Positions 9,078-45,292 of a stretch of DNA of 64,000 nucleotides are shown one piece after another. Both the position numbers and the translations under genes were made by a program. The stretch comes from Patescibacteria group bacterium. Lineage in GTDB: Bacteria; Patescibacteriota; Patescibacteriia; UBA9934. Where the stretch lies: contig JBBTSM010000006.1 of the NCBI GenBank assembly GCA_038064675.1, forward strand, positions 7,776 to 71,775, written 5' to 3'. The notes below the pieces were generated by a model. The model was given only the letters and a program-made list of their open reading frames with translations, ran no database searches and was not told the origin of the DNA. Position 1 is the stretch's first letter; the number at the start of each line of letters is the position of its first letter.

Positions 9078-9539
9078 ATGACCGCTCCCCGCTGGTATCC
9101 ATTCACTGTTCTCGGCGTGAGCATCGTCGGATTCTTCGACGCTGCATACTTAACAATCCAGCACTACACCCAATTCACCCTCCCCTGCACCATCACCCAC
9201 GGTTGCGACTTGGTGACAAAAAGCGAATACTCGCAAATCATGGGCATTCCGGTTTCTGTTCTTGGCGCTGTCTATTACCTCGCGATCTTCCTCGCCGTCT
9301 ACGTCATTCTCGAAACGAAAAAAACGGAATACCTCCGCTTCGTTGCCATCGCCACAACCTTCGGCTTTCTCTTCTCCGCCTGGTTCGTCTACCTCCAATT
9401 CTTCGTCATCCACGCCATCTGCCAGTACTGCATGTTCTCCGCCGCCACCTCAACCACCATGTTCGTGGTTTCGATTGTGTTTTTCTCGAGCGAGCACCTA
9501 AAGAACATTACGAAGTCGACACACTCCGAAGTTCTGTAA
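9078..9539 (+). CDS. vitamin K epoxide reductase (VKOR)-family membrane protein, DsbB functional analogue
   Basis: Four TM helices. Loop cysteines (CTITHGC) and a CxxC (CQYC) at the start of the last TM helix. Sits 4 nt after the dsbA-like gene. Confidence 0.7.
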   Translation: MTAPRWYPFTVLGVSIVGFFDAAYLTIQHYTQFTLPCTITHGCDLVTKSEYSQIMGIPVSVLGAVYYLAIFLAVYVILETKKTEYLRFVAIATTFGFLFSAWFVYLQFFVIHAICQYCMFSAATSTTMFVVSIVFFSSEHLKNITKSTHSEVL

Positions 9540-10023
9540 AAATCGGATCTTTGAACTCATTCGGGATCTTCTCAAGGATCGTCTTTGCGATATCAACGCT
9601 CCTCGCAATTTCATCTGTGTTATCCACTGATCGATAAAATCGGTAACTATCAAGCGTATCTGCTGTTTTCACGATAAGTGCCGATTCACCAACCGCAATA
9701 CACCGATCAATATATTCTCTTCGACGTTCTGCTGGATCGACGATACTGCGATCTTTCGTATTCGCTTTCACGATCGCAAGAACTGCGTCGCCGAACTCGC
9801 TCTTCACGAGACCTTCTGAAGCCTCCGTCCACTCAAGAATGTCGTGAAGCAACCCCGCTAACACGATGTCAGCCGAATAGTCATGTTCGTAAAGATACAT
9901 TCCAACGCGAAGAACATGCATGAGAAGCGGCTTCTTCCGTTTCTCGCCGACGGGCATGTATTGAACCAAAAGCTTCACCGCCTTTTCGAACTGAAGATCG
10001 AGCTGAATATTACCCAAGTTCAT
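9508..10023 (-). CDS. HD-domain phosphohydrolase
   Basis: LLMHVLRVGMYLYEHDYSADIVLAGLLHDILEWT contains the H..HD..H..D HD-domain motifs. Confidence 0.7.
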   Translation of the reverse strand: MNLGNIQLDLQFEKAVKLLVQYMPVGEKRKKPLLMHVLRVGMYLYEHDYSADIVLAGLLHDILEWTEASEGLVKSEFGDAVLAIVKANTKDRSIVDPAERRREYIDRCIAVGESALIVKTADTLDSYRFYRSVDNTDEIARSVDIAKTILEKIPNEFKDPIFTELRSVSTS

Positions 10024-10784
10024 ACTGTTTTTGCTTCAGACTTTTGGAAAATTCTTTCTCCCATGTGTAAGGCGAGTTCGCTCGGCAACCGATGTTCAAT
10101 TACATGTATTTCTCCTTTTTTCGTCTGACGAAGAAGAATATCCAAAACCGGAGATTCGATACCAAATATTAATCCTCCCGGCCTCGTGGCTCGATATACC
10201 TCCTTCGCGAGTGCCTCGTGATATTTCTCGTTTTTTACCATCATGAAATCGATACCATTAATCACAAAGCTTGCAGAATCATCCTTCATCCGAGAAAGAA
10301 CATCGAGCATGTCCGCACAAACGCTCACACGGACAATGCTTCGTGCATCATCTCCAATGCGCTGAATCGAAAACGGCACCATCGGATTCGGCCCGCTCTC
10401 TTCGCTCTGAAAACGCCATCGATCAATATTTACGTACATCGATGATCCGGAAGCGACCGCAAAACTAAACATTCTTCCAAAGCCGCCACCAACATCTACA
10501 AATGGCGCGCCCTCTAAATGTTCTTTAAAATATCCCCGTTCCTTCTCTACAAGCGCCTTTTCTTCTTCGGATCGATCACCAAAAAGGGATAGCGCATGAT
10601 CCCAATTTTCTGAATATGGCGTTTCTAGGCCCGTCACAATACTCGATTGTTTTTCTTGCGTTGCAATCAATTCCTTACACGTCACCGAGGGTTCACGCCC
10701 TGCCTCGATGAGATCTGTAAACGCGGGATCTCTCTTCAAACTAGGCTCCAAAGCTTCAAAACTCATATACACGAATTCTAACAC
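10020..10784 (-). CDS. putative class I SAM-dependent methyltransferase
   Basis: FVDVGGGFGRMF (GxGxG motif I) and TRPGGLIF. 4-nt overlap with the HD gene. Confidence 0.45.
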   Translation of the reverse strand: MLEFVYMSFEALEPSLKRDPAFTDLIEAGREPSVTCKELIATQEKQSSIVTGLETPYSENWDHALSLFGDRSEEEKALVEKERGYFKEHLEGAPFVDVGGGFGRMFSFAVASGSSMYVNIDRWRFQSEESGPNPMVPFSIQRIGDDARSIVRVSVCADMLDVLSRMKDDSASFVINGIDFMMVKNEKYHEALAKEVYRATRPGGLIFGIESPVLDILLRQTKKGEIHVIEHRLPSELALHMGERIFQKSEAKTV

Positions 10785-18258: not shown

Positions 18259-19020
18259 TCAGATACTGAACACCCCCGGCGGGATACAGAGCGCCCGCAT
18301 CGTCTCTTCCTTGAGTCGCGAGTTCGCTGCGTGGTAGAGGAGTCCCCGACGAACCTTCGTCTCCTGCATCTCGTCCGTCACGCTGGCCAGGTAGAGCGAG
18401 AGCTCCCCCATCGTCATGGTCGGGATGAGATTCGCCGACGGTAGTTCATGCGGGAGCACGTCGGCAACGGTGAGCGCCATGAATGCGGCGACCTCCTCCG
18501 CCACGGTGAGCTCCTTCGGCTCGATCGGCGTCGCGAGCGACGGATCGTAGACGAACAGTTGCTCGAGCGGCATTCCGGGACGAAGTCCGTGCTCGGCGAG
18601 TGCAGCGATGATCGCGGGCTCCTTCGCCCAGTCGCCGGTGCCGGCGAGCGCGATGAGTACTTCGAAGGGGGTCAACCACTTCAGATCCGGCGTTTTGCAC
18701 GCCTGGACGACGACAGCCTCGATGATCTCGCGAAGCTGCGGGAACATGTCGAGGCGACACCCGGCCGGCTTGAGAGCCGCTTCGGCGAAGTTCACGGTGC
18801 CGTTCATGCAGTTCTTGAGCCGACAGAGCTGCACCCGAGGAAGGGTTGCAAGCATCCACACCTGCTCGATGCCCGCGCGCTGACAGACATTCGCGAGCCG
18901 GGTAACGATACTGGACGAGCGCGGAGCTGCCGTCGGAACACGCTCGAGAAGCGCATCGACCGACATCGCGAGAACGTCGAGCGGAACAGATGACGGAGTA
19001 GGAAGAACGAGACGGGTCAT
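18259..19020 (-). CDS. hypothetical protein (inside high-GC islet)
   Basis: 253-aa ORF. High GC spawns several overlapping antisense ORFs. This is the longest, and it is convergent with the 17635-18141 gene. Confidence 0.4.
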   Translation of the reverse strand: MTRLVLPTPSSVPLDVLAMSVDALLERVPTAAPRSSSIVTRLANVCQRAGIEQVWMLATLPRVQLCRLKNCMNGTVNFAEAALKPAGCRLDMFPQLREIIEAVVVQACKTPDLKWLTPFEVLIALAGTGDWAKEPAIIAALAEHGLRPGMPLEQLFVYDPSLATPIEPKELTVAEEVAAFMALTVADVLPHELPSANLIPTMTMGELSLYLASVTDEMQETKVRRGLLYHAANSRLKEETMRALCIPPGVFSI

Positions 19021-24090: not shown

Positions 24091-24167
24091 TGGTGGGTCT
24101 GCCTGGACTCGAACCAGGGACCGGCGAGGTATAAGCTCGCTGCTCTAACCAACTGAGCTACAGACCC
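24091..24167 (-). tRNA. tRNA-Ile (anticodon TAT; AUA decoder), CCA encoded
   Basis: Acceptor GGGUCUG/CAGACCC, anticodon stem GCGAG/CUCGC with loop CUUAUAC, T-arm CCUGG-UUCGAGU-CCAGG. Confidence 0.7.
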
Positions 24168-35967: not shown

Positions 35968-37116
35968 ATGAAGATTGCTATCGATATTCGATCATTAACG
36001 GCGCCCCATAAAACTGGAGTGGGTATTGTCACTGAATCGCTCGTTCGAACATTGGCCGCGCAAGCACCGAATGACACATTTTTTCTCTTCGCGACAGGAA
36101 CAGAAGACACACTCATGAATCTTCCAATATTTCGCGAACACAATATTGTTCTTTCGCCGGTAACAATCCCAAACAAGATCGCGAGTATGCTCTGGGCATT
36201 GCCATTTGGGCCGACGATGGAACGGTTCCTCCCCGAAGTTCCAGATGCCTGGCTCTTTCCAAACGCACATCTTTTAAAGACAAAGCTCCCCTACGCGGTC
36301 ATTTTTCACGATGCTGCGCTCCGTACTGTTCCAAACTTCTTTACGTTCAAAGATCATCTGCGAGCTCGGATCACGAACGAAGACCGTGTATTCCAAAATG
36401 CACAACAGGTTATTGCCGTCTCTCAACACAGCAAGAAAGATGCCGCAGAGTATTACCGTGTTCCTCTCGATCGTGTTACCGTCGCAGACCTTGGCGTTGA
36501 TCACGACGTCTATAGTTCGCGTGAACAATCATCAGATCGATCGTATCGCGCCGCATACGATCTGAATCGACCGTACCTTCTCGCGCTCGCTACGCGCGAA
36601 CCACGAAAGAACATCGATAGCGTTATTACGGCATACACCGTGTTCCGTCAGCAAGGCGGGCAAGCGATTCCCTTGGTGCTCGCAGGTGCAAAAGGATGGA
36701 AAACGCGTCACATCGATGCCGCACTTACTACATCAATGTATCGCAACGATATCCGCGAAGTCGCGTATGTTCCAGAAAAGCACAAAGCCGCGGTGATTCG
36801 CGGTGCAAAAGCACTCCTCTTCCCATCGTTCTACGAAGGGTTCGGTCTTCCGGTTCTTGAAGCGATGGCCTGTGGAACCCCAGTCATCACCAGCATCACA
36901 TCTTCCCTTCCCGATGTTGCCGGCAACGCCGCACTCTTCGTCGATCCTCTCAATATTACCGACATCGTCCAGGCGCTCCACCAACTTCTCGACGAACCGC
37001 ATGGTCCAAAGCTTCAAGAAATTCTCAAAACGCGCGGTATTGAACGCGCGCAACGGTTTTCCTGGAAAAAAACCAGCGAGACCGTTCTAAAGGTACTTCA
37101 CGAAATTTCTTCATAA
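35968..37116 (+). CDS. GT4-family glycosyltransferase
   Basis: FYEGFGLPVLEAMACGTPVITSITSSLPDVAG is the GT4 donor-binding motif. Confidence 0.8.
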   Translation: MKIAIDIRSLTAPHKTGVGIVTESLVRTLAAQAPNDTFFLFATGTEDTLMNLPIFREHNIVLSPVTIPNKIASMLWALPFGPTMERFLPEVPDAWLFPNAHLLKTKLPYAVIFHDAALRTVPNFFTFKDHLRARITNEDRVFQNAQQVIAVSQHSKKDAAEYYRVPLDRVTVADLGVDHDVYSSREQSSDRSYRAAYDLNRPYLLALATREPRKNIDSVITAYTVFRQQGGQAIPLVLAGAKGWKTRHIDAALTTSMYRNDIREVAYVPEKHKAAVIRGAKALLFPSFYEGFGLPVLEAMACGTPVITSITSSLPDVAGNAALFVDPLNITDIVQALHQLLDEPHGPKLQEILKTRGIERAQRFSWKKTSETVLKVLHEISS

Positions 37117-37118
37117 AT

Positions 37119-38501
37119 TTGTTACAATACACACATATACTTACGCCTGGAGAAACGTGGCCAAATAATTTACCAAAAAAGGAAAATACCTCTGAAAGAA
37201 TTGAAAAATACGAATACCGAAATGCCACAGATGAAAAAATTTGCGATGTTGAAGCCACGATAGAGTTTGTTGAAAATGAGGAAGAACAAAAAACGATTTT
37301 ACGCAGTCTCTTTCTCGTTTCTATGTTAGGGGAGCGTATTGATTTTCTGAAATTCATGGAACTTCCAAAAACTTACCGCATCGTAATTGACGAACACGGA
37401 GACCCCGCCTGTGATCACAAGGAATCTACGATTGTTATACAGGGACTCAGCACACCTCTTCAACTCGCAACGCTCGCACATGAAATTGGGCATAGTTTAC
37501 AGCATTTTGAAAAGAATTTCTCCGATCTTGGGTACGGAATGGGTATAAAATTTTCTCCAAAGGATATCGCAAGCGCGAATGAGATTGCAAAACTCAATAC
37601 TCTCACAAATTTCAAACTTGATCATGCCCTTGTTCAGAAACTCGTCACAATGAAAGGAGATCTCGATAGCTGTCTTCATCGGCAAGATGAAGCCCATCAA
37701 ATCTGGGGGAAGCAATTGGAAATATTCAGAGCATTATATCGAATATACTTCACGGAATCTTTATCACTGATACGCGCATCCATAGATGAAGAGGATTTTG
37801 AAGGCATGCTCAGAGATCGCGGAATCCAAATGAGCGACTGGATTGAAGAATTCAAAAAAATACCAAAAGAAGAAATCAAACATTATATTGATAACTTTAT
37901 TCAAGGCACAGAAGGCTACACAACTTTAGGAGTCGATATCACACCGGAGGAGCTCATTGTTTTGCTCAAGATTCCTGCACACGACAAAAAAACGAAAGAT
38001 CGAGAGATATTTCTTCCATTTCATTTAAAAGGCGACGAGAGTCCCCTCTCGGAAAAAATGCAGGAAAGCGTCTTAGCGTATCGTCAAGCTTTTACAAAGA
38101 GCGCACTCGAACGTGCAACAGAAGCGGAAATACGAGAGGAGTATGAGCGCACCGTCGCTCCACACACGAAAACTATCAGCGCTCTGCTTCGGTCGACAAC
38201 AATTATCCTTGAGCAAGACGCCACAAAACGAGCCATCATCACATTGAAAAAGCTTCAAGAACTCGGAATAGATTTATTACAACCTCTAAAAGTTCTTCCT
38301 GTTGATAAGGAAAAAATCGAAAAAAGGAATCTCGAACTTTCACTTCAACTAGGCGAAGGTAGGGTCTTCAATTCGGGCATGGAATATGCCATTCGGAATC
38401 TCAATAGTTGTTTAGTTACATATTCTGCCGATCGTGAGTCAATACGAAGAGACTACCACCGCCCTCTAAAACTGAAAGCAAAGAAACCAAAGAAATCCTA
38501 G
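37119..38501 (+). CDS. HExxH-motif protein (ImmA/IrrE-like zinc-peptidase motif ATLAHEIGHSLQH) with a large charged C-terminal region; AT-rich foreign-looking gene; TTG start as listed, first in-frame ATG at about 37323
   Basis: 460-aa ORF. Strikingly low GC with K/E/I-rich codon usage, unlike the flanking GT genes. The HEIGH motif is embedded like ImmA/IrrE (COG2856) metalloproteases. Confidence 0.45.
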   Translation: MLQYTHILTPGETWPNNLPKKENTSERIEKYEYRNATDEKICDVEATIEFVENEEEQKTILRSLFLVSMLGERIDFLKFMELPKTYRIVIDEHGDPACDHKESTIVIQGLSTPLQLATLAHEIGHSLQHFEKNFSDLGYGMGIKFSPKDIASANEIAKLNTLTNFKLDHALVQKLVTMKGDLDSCLHRQDEAHQIWGKQLEIFRALYRIYFTESLSLIRASIDEEDFEGMLRDRGIQMSDWIEEFKKIPKEEIKHYIDNFIQGTEGYTTLGVDITPEELIVLLKIPAHDKKTKDREIFLPFHLKGDESPLSEKMQESVLAYRQAFTKSALERATEAEIREEYERTVAPHTKTISALLRSTTIILEQDATKRAIITLKKLQELGIDLLQPLKVLPVDKEKIEKRNLELSLQLGEGRVFNSGMEYAIRNLNSCLVTYSADRESIRRDYHRPLKLKAKKPKKS

Positions 38502-38608
38502 AACTACGAATTCTATCGTTCGCGCGCAACGCTTCTCTTGGTGAATGGAATAGCAGAGGACGAAAGCGCGCATCATCGGCGGCTCGGCATACGTGTTTTC
38601 CCAATCTG

Positions 38609-38692
38609 CGAGTGTAAAGACCTCTTTACACTTTTCCGATCAAAATGCCCAACGAAAGTGGAGAAATGTGTGTAAAGAGGTCTTTACACTCG
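38609..38692. repeat. perfect 23-nt inverted repeat pair (cgagtgtaaagacctctttacac / gtgtaaagaggtctttacactcg) separated by 37 nt
   Basis: Seen directly. Lies in the convergent intergenic region between the AT-rich HExxH gene and the DUF11-like gene. Each arm is itself nearly palindromic. Confidence 0.6.
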
Positions 38693-38784
38693 CAAAAGTC
38701 AAAAACCCATACCCCAAACCAAAAAATCACGCGCGCCATCTCATCCGTCCTTCCCCGCCCCATCCAAGATCAGATCACTTGCAT

Positions 38785-40701
38785 TTATATCGACGCCTTC
38801 ACCGTTCCCTTCCCCGTTGTCAGCACATCGCCTTCACATTCGGTGGTCACGGCATCAGCTGATCGTTCGAGTACCGATCCTGTCATGTCGTCCTTGGCAT
38901 TCAAAACTGTTTTGCCGACCAATGTTTTTGCTAAACCAACATCGGCGGCAGTTGGCGTGATCGATACGCTGAATCGAGCAGTAACAGCCGCGGATCCTGC
39001 TGGAATACTCGACATGGTCCAACGAACGATTCGTGTTCCGACGTCGTACAACATCGATCCGCTCGTTGCTGTCGAAAAATCGTCCCACGTCACCCCTTCT
39101 GGAAGCGTTGCAGAAACCGTGATGGCATCCAAGCCATGCAAACCACTCGCAATCGTCCACGTCGCCCGATAATGCGTTGTACTCCCCGCCATTGGTGGCA
39201 GCGGACCGCTCCCGAGTGGTGCACCGTCGTCATCAAAGTATCGCAATGTACTGAGGATTGCGGCATCGGAATTGAGCTGTACTGTTAGTGGAGCAGACTG
39301 AACCGTTATCGCTCCTCGTGTGGCGCTAAAGGCAACGGAAAACGCGCTGCTCACCGCGGAAAGATCGAGCTTCATCGGAAACGCAAGGTCGAGCGTTTTG
39401 TGGCTGCCGGCCGCAACGGTACCGATCGTTTTCGCGTCGAATGTGATACCCTTAGCAGTCACCTTTCCGCCAGCAAGCACCGCAGTGCCCCAATCAATCG
39501 GCAAGTTGTCTTCCGCGGTAAAGTCGAGCAACGCTGTTGCATCGGCAATCGCTGTATCACTGGTGTTATCAATACGAAGCGCAATGCGGAATAACGATCC
39601 TGGATCTGCAACTACCGTTCCTTGTGATCCATTTCCAACCATGAGAAGCGACAACGCGCTTCCCTTCACATCGGTCAGCGCCGTTGTTGTAGTCTGCGGA
39701 GAAAATCGCGTGCCAGCAATGCCGCTCACCACAGTGAGCGTTTGCGTGCCCGATGCGTCAGATGCAAAGGCTCCGGTCACAACAATTGTGGATTCTGAAG
39801 GAATCGGGGCAACAGGCACAGCAGAAGCAACGGGCGATCCGTCGGTTGCAACGGAATCGGCGGCCGGTGCAGCCGGCGGAATGTCTGGCAATGTATAGGT
39901 TGGCGCTCCGCCGGCAGCCAATGGCGGCACACTCGTTTGCACAAAGAATCCCTTTGGTAACGTGAGCTTTACTTGTGGAGCAACAATCGTTTCTGTCCCC
40001 GCATTCTGTACATGGACGGTATACGTAACGGTTTCGCCAACATTTACTGTTTCTGGCGCGTCGATGGCGACAATCGTGGTGCTCGTATTCGTTGCGATTG
40101 TTTTCGTGACGATATCGTGGAACTGCGCATTAAAGTTTGCCGGCTGATACGACGCGAGCGCCTGAATACCAGTGGTACTTGGAACATCGGCATTCCAAAT
40201 ACCTTCGATGAGAATCTTTCCATCGCTCTTCCCAGAAATCGTTCCTAAATCAAACACCATGTCCGCAGCACTCGTCACCGCTGGCGTTGACGACTTCATA
40301 ACAAATCCCGCCGGCAAGTTCATATCAATCTCCACGTTCGTCAGCGGATACGATGTCTGATTCGCGTAGTCGAATTCGATTGTCGCATCAGCACCACTCC
40401 GCATATCATCCGAAGCAACAAACGCCATCGCCAAAGGCTTTCCTTGCTGTTCTGGACCAAAATAGCGCGAGTACACCACGTATCCGCCGAGCGTCAGCAC
40501 ACAAATCACCGTTAACGCCACAATCGCCCGAAGCAAAAATCGTGTGAGTCGAGACCCGCCCTTTGTTACCACCTTCAAGTCGTCGCGCTCGTCGCCGTAA
40601 ATCGCCGAAAGGCCAGCGCTGATGTCCGCCTCCATTTGTTGCGCAGAATCCTTTGGACTCCGAGCGTCCGCGCGATGCGAATGGCGACGTTTAGTGAGCA
40701 T
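38785..40701 (-). CDS. cell-surface protein with N-terminal TM anchor and DUF11-like (conserved repeat domain) beta-sandwich repeats
   Basis: 638 aa with TM LLRAIVALTVICVLTLGGYVVY. Repeats such as VTYTVHVQNAGTETIVAPQVKLTLPKGF; Thr/Ser/Ala/Gly-rich throughout. Confidence 0.45.
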   Translation of the reverse strand: MLTKRRHSHRADARSPKDSAQQMEADISAGLSAIYGDERDDLKVVTKGGSRLTRFLLRAIVALTVICVLTLGGYVVYSRYFGPEQQGKPLAMAFVASDDMRSGADATIEFDYANQTSYPLTNVEIDMNLPAGFVMKSSTPAVTSAADMVFDLGTISGKSDGKILIEGIWNADVPSTTGIQALASYQPANFNAQFHDIVTKTIATNTSTTIVAIDAPETVNVGETVTYTVHVQNAGTETIVAPQVKLTLPKGFFVQTSVPPLAAGGAPTYTLPDIPPAAPAADSVATDGSPVASAVPVAPIPSESTIVVTGAFASDASGTQTLTVVSGIAGTRFSPQTTTTALTDVKGSALSLLMVGNGSQGTVVADPGSLFRIALRIDNTSDTAIADATALLDFTAEDNLPIDWGTAVLAGGKVTAKGITFDAKTIGTVAAGSHKTLDLAFPMKLDLSAVSSAFSVAFSATRGAITVQSAPLTVQLNSDAAILSTLRYFDDDGAPLGSGPLPPMAGSTTHYRATWTIASGLHGLDAITVSATLPEGVTWDDFSTATSGSMLYDVGTRIVRWTMSSIPAGSAAVTARFSVSITPTAADVGLAKTLVGKTVLNAKDDMTGSVLERSADAVTTECEGDVLTTGKGTVKASI

Positions 40702-44599: not shown

Positions 44600-45292
44600 T
44601 TAGAAGTAGTGAGTTGCTGACGGTATCTTTTGGCACAAATCATAAAAGTCACCCTGCATGGCAAATGCATAACCGTCCGACGGGAATCCACGACTTGGGA
44701 TTTGCAGCAGAATCCTCGTAGCATCTAGCCGCCACATTGTTATCAAGTCTTCGACAAAACCTAACAGACGAAAGCCTGTTTCTCCCCGCTGTTGAGCGCT
44801 AAGAATTCTATCAGCCACCTTCCCGAGACTCTCTTCCGTAACAAAGAAAAGCTGTTTTCTTAAGTACTCAAGAGTGCTAACCCGATCATCGAAGAGTGGG
44901 AGATCCGAGAGCGAAAGTTCCCGATCCGGAAGAGCAAGTCTTTGCAACATGGCCAATTTTTCTTTCATCAAATCTGAAGAGTCCTCATTTCTCCCCACCA
45001 AATACACCGCACAATCCGCAGACTTCTCACGCTCATTCCAAGATTCAATAGAAAAAACGTACACAAGCACCGCATTCTCCTCAAACGTGAGCCTCAGAAG
45101 CTCTCCGGCCCGAACATCCCCCACCTTTTTTAAATTACAGATACCGAAACCTCCCAAGCTAACGTATTCAGCAGGGCCGATAGGATAATCCTTAATACGT
45201 GAGGCCTCTGGCTTTTTCCTGAGCTCGAGCTCGAGTTCTACCACTTTCATTCCATTTTTCATATAAAAGATCTTAGCATATTGAACGCTCAA
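44600..45292 (-). CDS. hypothetical protein
   Basis: 230-aa ORF with no recognisable motif. A GC hairpin (ccccggc-cacgcaa-gccgggg, 44570-44590) lies just downstream. Confidence 0.35.
   Translation of the reverse strand: MSVQYAKIFYMKNGMKVVELELELRKKPEASRIKDYPIGPAEYVSLGGFGICNLKKVGDVRAGELLRLTFEENAVLVYVFSIESWNEREKSADCAVYLVGRNEDSSDLMKEKLAMLQRLALPDRELSLSDLPLFDDRVSTLEYLRKQLFFVTEESLGKVADRILSAQQRGETGFRLLGFVEDLITMWRLDATRILLQIPSRGFPSDGYAFAMQGDFYDLCQKIPSATHYF

Follow-up and report, generated by a model that had tools for sequence, protein, structure and literature searches.

The HExxH gene and its surroundings

We analysed a 64,000-nt stretch of DNA from a Patescibacteria group bacterium whose genome is Uhrbacteria-like and was assembled from a groundwater metagenome (contig JBBTSM010000006.1; hereafter, the window), focusing on an AT-rich gene for a 460-aa protein that carries an HExxH motif (the HExxH gene) and on the inverted repeat that lies directly downstream. 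On the plus strand, the gene order is Bac_transf, glycosyltransferase family 4 (GT4), GT4 and the HExxH gene. These genes converge with a minus-strand series of GT4, DUF4012 and DUF11/CARDB-like genes, and the stop of the DUF11-like gene is at 38785. The HExxH gene starts with a TTG located 2 nt past the TAA stop (37114–37116) of the preceding GT4, as proposed in a preliminary description made from the sequence alone. Because family conservation (21-sequence alignment) and the high-confidence β-strands of the AlphaFold model both begin at residues ~25–30, this TTG is the only canonical start that keeps the conserved domain; the alternative, a downstream ATG, would cut it, the first in-frame ATG being codon 69 (37323). 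The motif is where it had been reported, with ATLAHEIGHSLQH, which contains HEIGH, occupying residues 117–129. Neighbour annotation also agreed with the reported lack of a helix-turn-helix (HTH) partner: the neighbours are GT4 and DUF11/CARDB-like genes, and no HTH gene adjoins the HExxH gene or lies within the cluster. Neither an integrase nor a tRNA was found at its borders, the nearest tRNA lying 6.4 kb off. An identical protein is annotated as hypothetical in a Patescibacteria metagenome-assembled genome (MAG), and the only further occurrences of the protein are on near-identical contigs, which come from Hainich groundwater and a small number of other runs.

The composition of the gene sets it apart from the rest of the window. 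Its GC content is 0.406, compared to a mean of 0.519 over 48 open reading frames (ORFs) of the window (z = −3.9), and its GC at third codon positions (GC3, 0.371) is the lowest of the 48 (z = −2.7), with GC at second positions (GC2) also low (z = −2.2). In 500-nt segments, GC runs from 0.39 to 0.43 within the gene and from 0.50 to 0.55 outside it. Lys, Glu and Ile together account for 28.3% of the protein versus 17.1% (rank 1 of 41), so that GC, GC3 and K+E+I content all bear out the AT-rich and K/E/I-rich character first attributed to it. Codon usage gave a divided answer, since GC and GC3 are deviant whereas the synonymous-codon vector distance is unremarkable (z = 0.85); the deviation therefore stems from GC3 and amino-acid makeup, with no exotic codon dialect. 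The gene lies 11.4 GC points under its surroundings, whereas its relatives in five other genomes differ from theirs by +0.6 to −6 points, with values of −1.4 to −6 at four of these five loci. Other compositional outliers among the mechanically called ORFs of the window lie on the minus strand at 18259–19020, 9508–10784 and 44600–45292; one of the outlier ORFs is GC-rich (0.633, GC3 0.78) and three have a GC content of 0.45–0.46.

We compared the window with five syntenic loci (L013, L058, L059, L060 and L063), chosen from a graded series of orthologues of the adjacent GT4. The HExxH gene is missing from between the flanking genes in all five, as would be expected of a lateral acquisition. In L059, L063 and L060 (GT4 85, 88 and 80% identical, respectively), the junction between the GT4 and DUF11-like genes is empty, with convergent stops 2–5 nt apart. 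In L013 (Candidatus Uhrbacteria Ike-50m-33, GT4 84% identical), it consists of a 249-nt spacer, which is the repeat element described below. In L058 (GT4 90% identical), it holds a 276-aa Methyltransf_25 gene on the opposite strand (L058:6156–7235), bracketed by the GC-rich hairpins CCCCGCGTAGGCGGGG and CCATCCTCGCCTACGCGAGGATGG and without the repeat element. According to 4–5 shared proteins, L013 and L058 are closest to the window, followed by L059, with L060 outermost. Given this order and the presence of the HExxH gene in the window alone, the empty junction is ancestral; the pattern across all six sampled loci confines the gene to a terminal branch. Since L058 carries a different insert at the same site, the junction qualifies as an insertion hotspot, and the comparison indicates that the HExxH gene is a lineage-specific insertion at this recurrently used position.

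The 3′ end of the preceding GT4 provides the probable left edge of the insertion. In a six-way alignment, its identity to the consensus is ~90% up to ~37075 and ~45% beyond, and the encoded C-terminus is SETVLKVLHEISS in the window versus GSIVLETLREIA... in all five relatives. This suggests that the foreign segment spans ~37075 to ~38520; recombination may have brought it in from a donor in which a GT4 gene likewise lay upstream. Direct repeats indicative of a target-site duplication at the two gene junctions were no better than those in shuffled sequences.

A dispersed palindromic element downstream of the gene

The inverted repeat had been described as perfect, with 23-nt arms separated by 37 nt. 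It is indeed perfect, but the arms are 24 nt long and 38 nt apart, with 0 chance matches expected. The arms are palindromes in their own right (GTGTAAAGA-NN-TCTTTACAC), and imperfect complementarity extends beyond the arms across the entire intergenic region. The outer ends of the resulting element, (A)CTGATCyTTGrAtGGG... and ...CCCaTCCAAGATCAG, form a terminal inverted repeat. Its suspected resemblance to a miniature inverted-repeat transposable element (MITE) was substantiated by copies at unrelated intergenic sites elsewhere. An exact 20-mer scan, in which each species was represented by one genome, located the sequence in two Uhrbacteria MAGs, one with two copies on a single contig, and a metagenome scan added two further copies on a 143-kb Hainich contig. 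We discarded most of the 39 metagenome and 2 viral 20-mer matches as single chance palindromes, only L016 and L044 being real, and a Campylobacteraceae match (L012) was likewise due to chance. The 64-kb window contains one copy, and contigs of 62 and 143 kb contain two apiece, which gives an apparent density of about one copy per 30–70 kb of sequence examined.

In total, the six copies are spread over four non-orthologous sites and at least four genomes. The first site, shared by the window and L013, lies between convergent genes, and the second, in L014 and L016, between HhH-GPD glycosylase and thioredoxin-like genes. At the third (L011:1471–1790), the element ends 22 nt upstream of the TTGACA-17-TATACT promoter of hrcA-grpE, which carries the HrcA-binding inverted repeat CIRCE (controlling inverted repeat of chaperone expression). 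At the fourth (L044:7771–8125), it is placed between a perfect TTGACA-17-TATACT / TTAGCACTC-N9-GAGTGCTAA CIRCE promoter and the ATG of clpB. The arm–spacer–arm core, including the oriented spacer, is conserved in all six copies, and homology continues into ~80 nt of either flank. Apart from the central dinucleotide and, in some copies, single end-base changes, the arms are identical or almost identical, while the flanks are ~60–80% identical. In leave-one-out profile searches, the flanks pointed to the right position and strand in whichever locus had been omitted (left-flank E = 1e-10 to 3e-3). No conserved ORF was found in the element, which has an ATG-TAA in L013 versus an open frame in the window.

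At the junction studied here, the element is present in the window and L013 and absent from L058, L059, L060 and L063. Its absence from the orthologous junction in L059, L060 and L063 marks it as an insertion, and its presence in L013 without the HExxH gene separates it from any cassette containing that gene; the distribution among these loci indicates that the element was at the junction before the gene. The preliminary description had treated the whole segment as a single laterally acquired insertion. This holds for the gene, which is compositionally foreign and absent from relatives, and not for the inverted repeat, which L013 has on its own. The inverted repeat is the invariant core of a dispersed, presumably mobile, MITE/REPIN-like repeat. 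This palindromic repeat family of Uhrbacteria is previously undescribed, although of a known kind of element; we found no relevant literature on MITEs in Patescibacteria.

The element is predicted to fold strongly as RNA (z = −9.7 for the minus strand and −5.7 for the plus strand). Over 38520–38790, the minus-strand fold reaches −124 kcal/mol versus −84 kcal/mol for the plus strand, with 21 versus 5 potential G·U pairs. This strand bias is shared by L044, and L011, L014 and L016 show either none or the opposite one; an overall wobble-pair bias towards the minus strand of the window (84 vs 54, p = 0.013) considered as evidence for an RNA gene was therefore dropped as inconsistent among copies. 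The core hairpin has a folding energy of −48 kcal/mol, and single arms of −9 to −11 kcal/mol. The central dinucleotide of each 20-bp palindrome (38620–38621 and 38680–38681 in the window) is CC in some copies and GG in others; the orthologues L014 and L016 themselves differ in this way, in one arm only. The swap between the window and L013 was examined as compensatory covariation and rejected, the centres being complementary in only four of six copies; the arms themselves hardly vary and so are unable to reveal covariation. Judging from the aligned copies, the switch looks like a small hairpin-loop inversion of the palindrome centre rather than an ordinary substitution, and we do not take it to prove that the long stem is under selection. 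Rfam returned only spurious microRNA-hairpin matches far below gathering scores. A consensus scan detected no intrinsic terminator in 38500–38790, where the stems are A/U-rich and UUUU follows the left arm only, and a promoter/terminator scan at the inverted repeat found nothing. Overall, the evidence for an RNA-level function of the element is weak. No CIRCE motif was found in the window with 3 mismatches allowed, and the true CIRCE sites of L011 and L044 adjoin the element without being part of it. Half-sites of the arms (GAGTGTAAA / TTTACACTC) agree with CIRCE half-sites at 7 of 9 positions, in everted order.

A rare protein family with a putative zinc site

An exhaustive HMMER pass over 1.84 billion representative proteins yielded a family of 21 cluster representatives at E ≤ 1e-3, every cluster being tiny. 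A word-indexed search with the protein returned only the identical protein, and with the family alignment it added one Magasanikbacteria member. Members are ~20–26% identical to the query, and those with a named source come from Patescibacteria, Parcubacteria and Magasanikbacteria, plus one Polyangiales MAG. Seven positions are invariant in the 21 sequences (H121, E122, H125, Q128, E365, A368 and L432), with G71, D367 (≥90%), A372 and G383 near-invariant. The family signature begins with an N-terminal hairpin, Y-x-Y-R-D-A-x-G-x-x-I-C-x-V-E, followed by HExxHxxQ, a middle region of hypervariable length, LERDATxRAL..LR.L...GIDLL, and L..YGAD near a basic C-terminus. Since both His, the Glu, the Gln three residues on and the distal Glu are invariant at only 20–25% identity, the motif is evidently under functional constraint. 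On these alignments, the family is coherent, rare, without a Pfam entry and mostly confined to Patescibacteria.

In other genomes, the family is found in housekeeping operons. At one locus of the ligA-gatC-gatA-X-lgt type discussed below (L057:4517–7413), two tandem paralogues of 495 and 470 aa, the upstream one recognised with E = 6e-48, lie between gatA and lgt. Other members are located after pyrBICDEF, between NTP-transferase and YceG genes, or near TK/SPOUT genes. An HTH partner was never seen among the loci examined, and 2.9 million viral contigs contained no relatives.

Searches of Pfam, NCBIfam and PDB sequences with the HExxH protein gave nothing significant, the best match being DUF6782 (E = 0.05). 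This putative metallopeptidase family (PF20573) is weakly matched by 8 of the 21 members (best E = 5.4e-6) over the strand and HExxH-helix region; profile positions ~37–113 are covered, and only ~40–70 residues align. Zn_peptidase_2 (PF04298) is matched by four members. The window protein scores 13.3 and 12.5 bits to DUF6782/Zn_peptidase_2, against a 27-bit gathering threshold, and the individually scanned members score 15.7–18.2 bits, also below it. We found no relevant literature on DUF6782. In PHROGs, four members weakly match phrog_87, a “metallo-protease” (best E = 0.015); beyond this, NCBIfam and PHROGs offered nothing usable and PADLOC gave no hits of substance. A profile search for Peptidase_M78 (PF06114; COG2856/ImmA), the family to which the motif had first been assigned, left the window protein without a hit at E ≤ 10 and matched one of the 21 members (E = 0.014). 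Judged by these profiles, the protein does not belong to any curated family tested.

An AlphaFold model based on the 21-sequence alignment reached a predicted local distance difference test score (pLDDT) of 79.4 and a predicted template modelling score (pTM) of 0.72, whereas prediction from the single sequence (pLDDT 33) was unusable. The model contains β-strands within residues 25–107, the HExxH helix (113–130), two long helices (169–222 and 309–381) and C-terminal helices. The HExxH helix comes after strands 87–107 at pLDDT ≥ 89, so that the invariant motif is carried by an α-helix following a β-sheet, as in zincins and gluzincins. The tip (~223–308) is predicted with low confidence and is hypervariable in length in the family alignment. 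The predicted architecture is a β/α head interrupted by a long antiparallel coiled coil, the tip of which is variable. E365, invariant, lies on the returning helix 309–381 and, by helix register, level with the point at which the first long helix emerges from the head; a role as third metal ligand would fit the model. No transmembrane or hydrophobic segment was detected (maximum 19-residue hydropathy 1.1). The conserved motif supports a predicted metal-dependent hydrolase, and the ORF is a real gene whose product is most likely a cytoplasmic zinc-dependent hydrolase, with metal binding and catalysis as predicted properties. The coordinates of the features are collected in Table 1.

Table 1. 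Features of the gene and of the palindromic element, in window coordinates
Feature	Position	Strand	Remarks
Divergent, AT-richer last ~13 GT4 codons (encoding SETVLKVLHEISS and the stop)	37075..37116	+	Probable left edge of the foreign segment
HExxH gene	37119..38501	+	460 aa; unnamed Patescibacteria family of putative zinc metalloproteins
HExxHxxQ codons, H121-E122-I-G-H125-S-L-Q128	37479..37502	+	Family-invariant; helix 113–130, pLDDT ~94
Two long antiparallel helices (169–222, 309–381) and variable tip (~223–308)	37623..38261	+	AlphaFold secondary structure and pLDDT
E365-Q-D367-A368 codons (family motif LERDATxRAL)	38211..38222	+	Helix 309–381, pLDDT 93–97; candidate third metal ligand
Palindromic dispersed repeat element	38525..38784	.	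~256 nt, imperfect palindrome; nhmmer extent 38525–38780; abuts DUF11-like stop
Left arm, GCGAGTGTAAAGACCTCTTTACAC	38608..38631	.	9+2+9 palindrome, then TTTT
Spacer, TTTTCyGATCrAAAAyCCCAAyrAAAG...	38632..38669	+	38 nt, conserved and oriented; six-copy alignment
Right arm, reverse complement of left	38670..38693	.	Perfect inverted repeat

Origin and function of the gene and the element

The account that we favour overall, and hold to be fairly probable, is that a gene of a zinc-hydrolase family was inserted laterally beside an older dispersed palindromic repeat. The ~256-nt repeat would have inserted earlier between two convergent operons, where its role is probably no more than that of a large hairpin separating convergent transcripts, possibly as a terminator. 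The HExxH gene would then have entered the lineage recently from a donor of lower GC, landing where the 3′ end of the last plus-strand GT4 met the pre-existing element; the last ~13 GT4 codons would have been replaced in the process, and the gene would now be read as the last cistron of a Bac_transf-GT4-GT4 operon. The donor and the recombination route are conjectural parts of this scheme. In the encoded protein, an N-terminal β-sheet would lead to the HExxHxxQ helix, and a coiled-coil hairpin with a hypervariable tip would leave the head and re-enter it. The third metal ligand would come from the E-x-D-A motif of the returning helix, in the manner of gluzincins, so that a zincin-like head would be built from both ends of the chain across the coiled-coil arm.

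Several observations weigh against parts of this account. As to the enzyme, searches of PDB sequences by phmmer and by profile (full-length and N-domain only) returned coiled-coil noise or nothing, and wherever a bit score was recorded the Pfam matches fell below gathering scores. Fold searches with the whole model retrieved no peptidase, the top matches being coiled-coil and SMC/Rad50-like proteins, none at E ≤ 1e-3, and no solved or viral fold matched significantly. In addition, E365 is 240 residues past the HExxH, a spacing unusual for gluzincins. As to lateral entry, no donor was identified, the closest homologue being 26–40% identical. The family does not seem intrinsically mobile, because the context ligA-gatC-gatA-X-(small membrane protein)-lgt, with X the family gene, is kept in three divergent lineages (P0002, P0004 and P0009). 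As to the mobility of the repeat, comparison with the empty sites gave no clear target-site duplication at the window or L013 junctions, and neither a transposase nor a RAYT for the repeat was identified among the genome fragments examined. Moreover, CIRCE promoters adjoin two of the four repeat sites (rough p ~ 0.002), which could keep a regulatory role, rather than that of a selfish element, under consideration.

Such a role would make the twin palindromes operators of a dimeric stress-regulon regulator, or the element a cis-regulatory RNA switch, in either case a regulatory module whose position beside the HExxH gene would carry regulatory significance; we regard this as unlikely, though it deserves some weight. 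Consistent with it, the 20-bp palindromes hardly change from copy to copy or between species whereas their flanks drift, two sites touch HrcA/CIRCE promoters (the clpB 5′ untranslated region (UTR) in L044 and upstream of hrcA-grpE in L011), a third is 5′ of the thioredoxin-like gene, and the arms can fold locally, the left one being followed by UUUU, or pair with each other in the core hairpin. However, in the window and L013 the element separates two 3′ ends and is not next to any gene start that it could regulate, and relative to the CIRCE promoter it is upstream in L011 and downstream in L044. The ~110 further bits of flank homology, together with the presence/absence polymorphism, favour duplication or insertion over convergent operators, and neither the G·U strand asymmetry nor the complementarity of the CC/GG centres is consistent among copies. 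A linked reading that we consider quite unlikely joins this regulatory role to the enzyme: the protein would represent a new class of metal enzymes with an active site formed across an SMC/Rad50-like arm, the tip choosing substrate or partner, and the element would be a portable stress-regulon module (twin operators or RNA switch) beside HrcA/CIRCE chaperone genes. The protein might alternatively not be catalytic at all, acting as a structural or scaffolding SMC/Rad50-like coiled-coil protein whose conserved polar residues bind nucleic acid or a partner. The head-plus-coiled-coil architecture, the only one returned by fold searches, the basic C-terminal tail and the lack of a significant peptidase family or structure match speak for this. 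We nevertheless think it improbable, since an exact H-E-x-x-H and a distal Glu are invariant at such low identity, the sub-threshold matches recur to two putative metallopeptidase families and to nothing else consistently, the motif helix directly follows a β-sheet as in zincins, and the TM-scores to Rad50/SMC folds are 0.1–0.13.

Ancestry of the gene in the clade, followed by loss in its relatives, would attribute the low GC to the K/E/I-rich composition of the family. Family genes tend to be slightly below the GC of their flanks elsewhere, GC2 is low and the synonymous-codon distance is not an outlier. Nevertheless, under this scenario exact deletions leaving stops 2–5 nt apart must have happened independently three or four times at the least, the outgroup L060 included. 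The lowest GC3 of the 48 ORFs and a GC deficit about twice the largest deviation elsewhere also speak against it, as does the rewritten GT4 3′ end found only in the window, and together these points make it very improbable. The original ImmA/IrrE-type (M78, COG2856) assignment, developed into an antirepressor metalloprotease left behind by a prophage or mobile element with gene and inverted repeat as one cassette, fared worst and is now hardly credible. The HExxH in a hydrophobic context, the foreign composition, the absence of the gene from relatives and the weak phrog_87 matches are what such a remnant would display. This identity failed the profile, partner and mobile-element tests: PF06114 does not match the window protein and barely touches the family, no HTH gene adjoins, other members reside in housekeeping operons, and neither viral contigs nor PADLOC provided support. 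The element is also present in L013 without the gene, and the reading as a whole is largely refuted.

Compared to known systems, the HExxH protein is predicted from its sequence to work most like a gluzincin-type zinc hydrolase. In gluzincins, zinc is bound by two His and a downstream Glu. Thermolysin-like clan MA(E) enzymes and minigluzincins share with the family an HExxH helix after a β-sheet and an invariant Glu on a later helix; their Glu, however, lies ~20–60 residues downstream within E-x-x-x-D, whereas here 240 residues, a coiled-coil arm and an E-x-D-A motif are involved. DUF6782 and Zn_peptidase_2 likewise have an HE-x-GH-A-x-Q type motif after β-strands, but the matches include no counterpart to the coiled-coil hairpin, the LERDAT helix or the C-terminal YG-AD module. 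ImmA/IrrE proteins resemble the case in their HExxH motif, in a small-genome host and in the absence of the gene from relatives; the M78 domain is compact, unlike the size and architecture of this protein. The similarity to SMC/Rad50 is one of topology without homology, the HExxH protein having no Walker or ABC motifs.

The architecture of the element is closest to MITEs and REPINs. Similar to these and to Correia and ERIC repeats, it is short and non-coding, and its two 9+2+9 palindromic units are inverted relative to each other and form a long hairpin. It also shares with them its occurrence at unrelated intergenic sites, between convergent genes and in 5′ UTRs, with presence/absence polymorphism. 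It differs from all of these in that the best-conserved palindromes lie in its interior, ~80 nt from either terminus, in its low apparent density and in having two copies tied to CIRCE promoters.

Patescibacteria, also known as the candidate phyla radiation (CPR), have small genomes with many genes of no known function. A family that combines the putative active site HExxHxxQ ... E-x-D-A with an unusual head-plus-coiled-coil architecture is a concrete target for expression and structural studies, of use to CPR biologists and to those who classify proteases. Gene flow can also be followed at this locus down to a single junction, where the same 2-nt gap received three different inserts in close relatives, and a repeat in the clpB 5′ UTR and beside the hrcA promoter could affect heat-shock expression in hosts that have very few regulators. 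The importance of these findings is moderate, as they address no long-standing open question. Elsewhere in the window, at 24091–24167 on the minus strand, we observed a tRNA-Ile with anticodon UAU (TAT in DNA), which represents an uncommon bacterial way of reading AUA codons.

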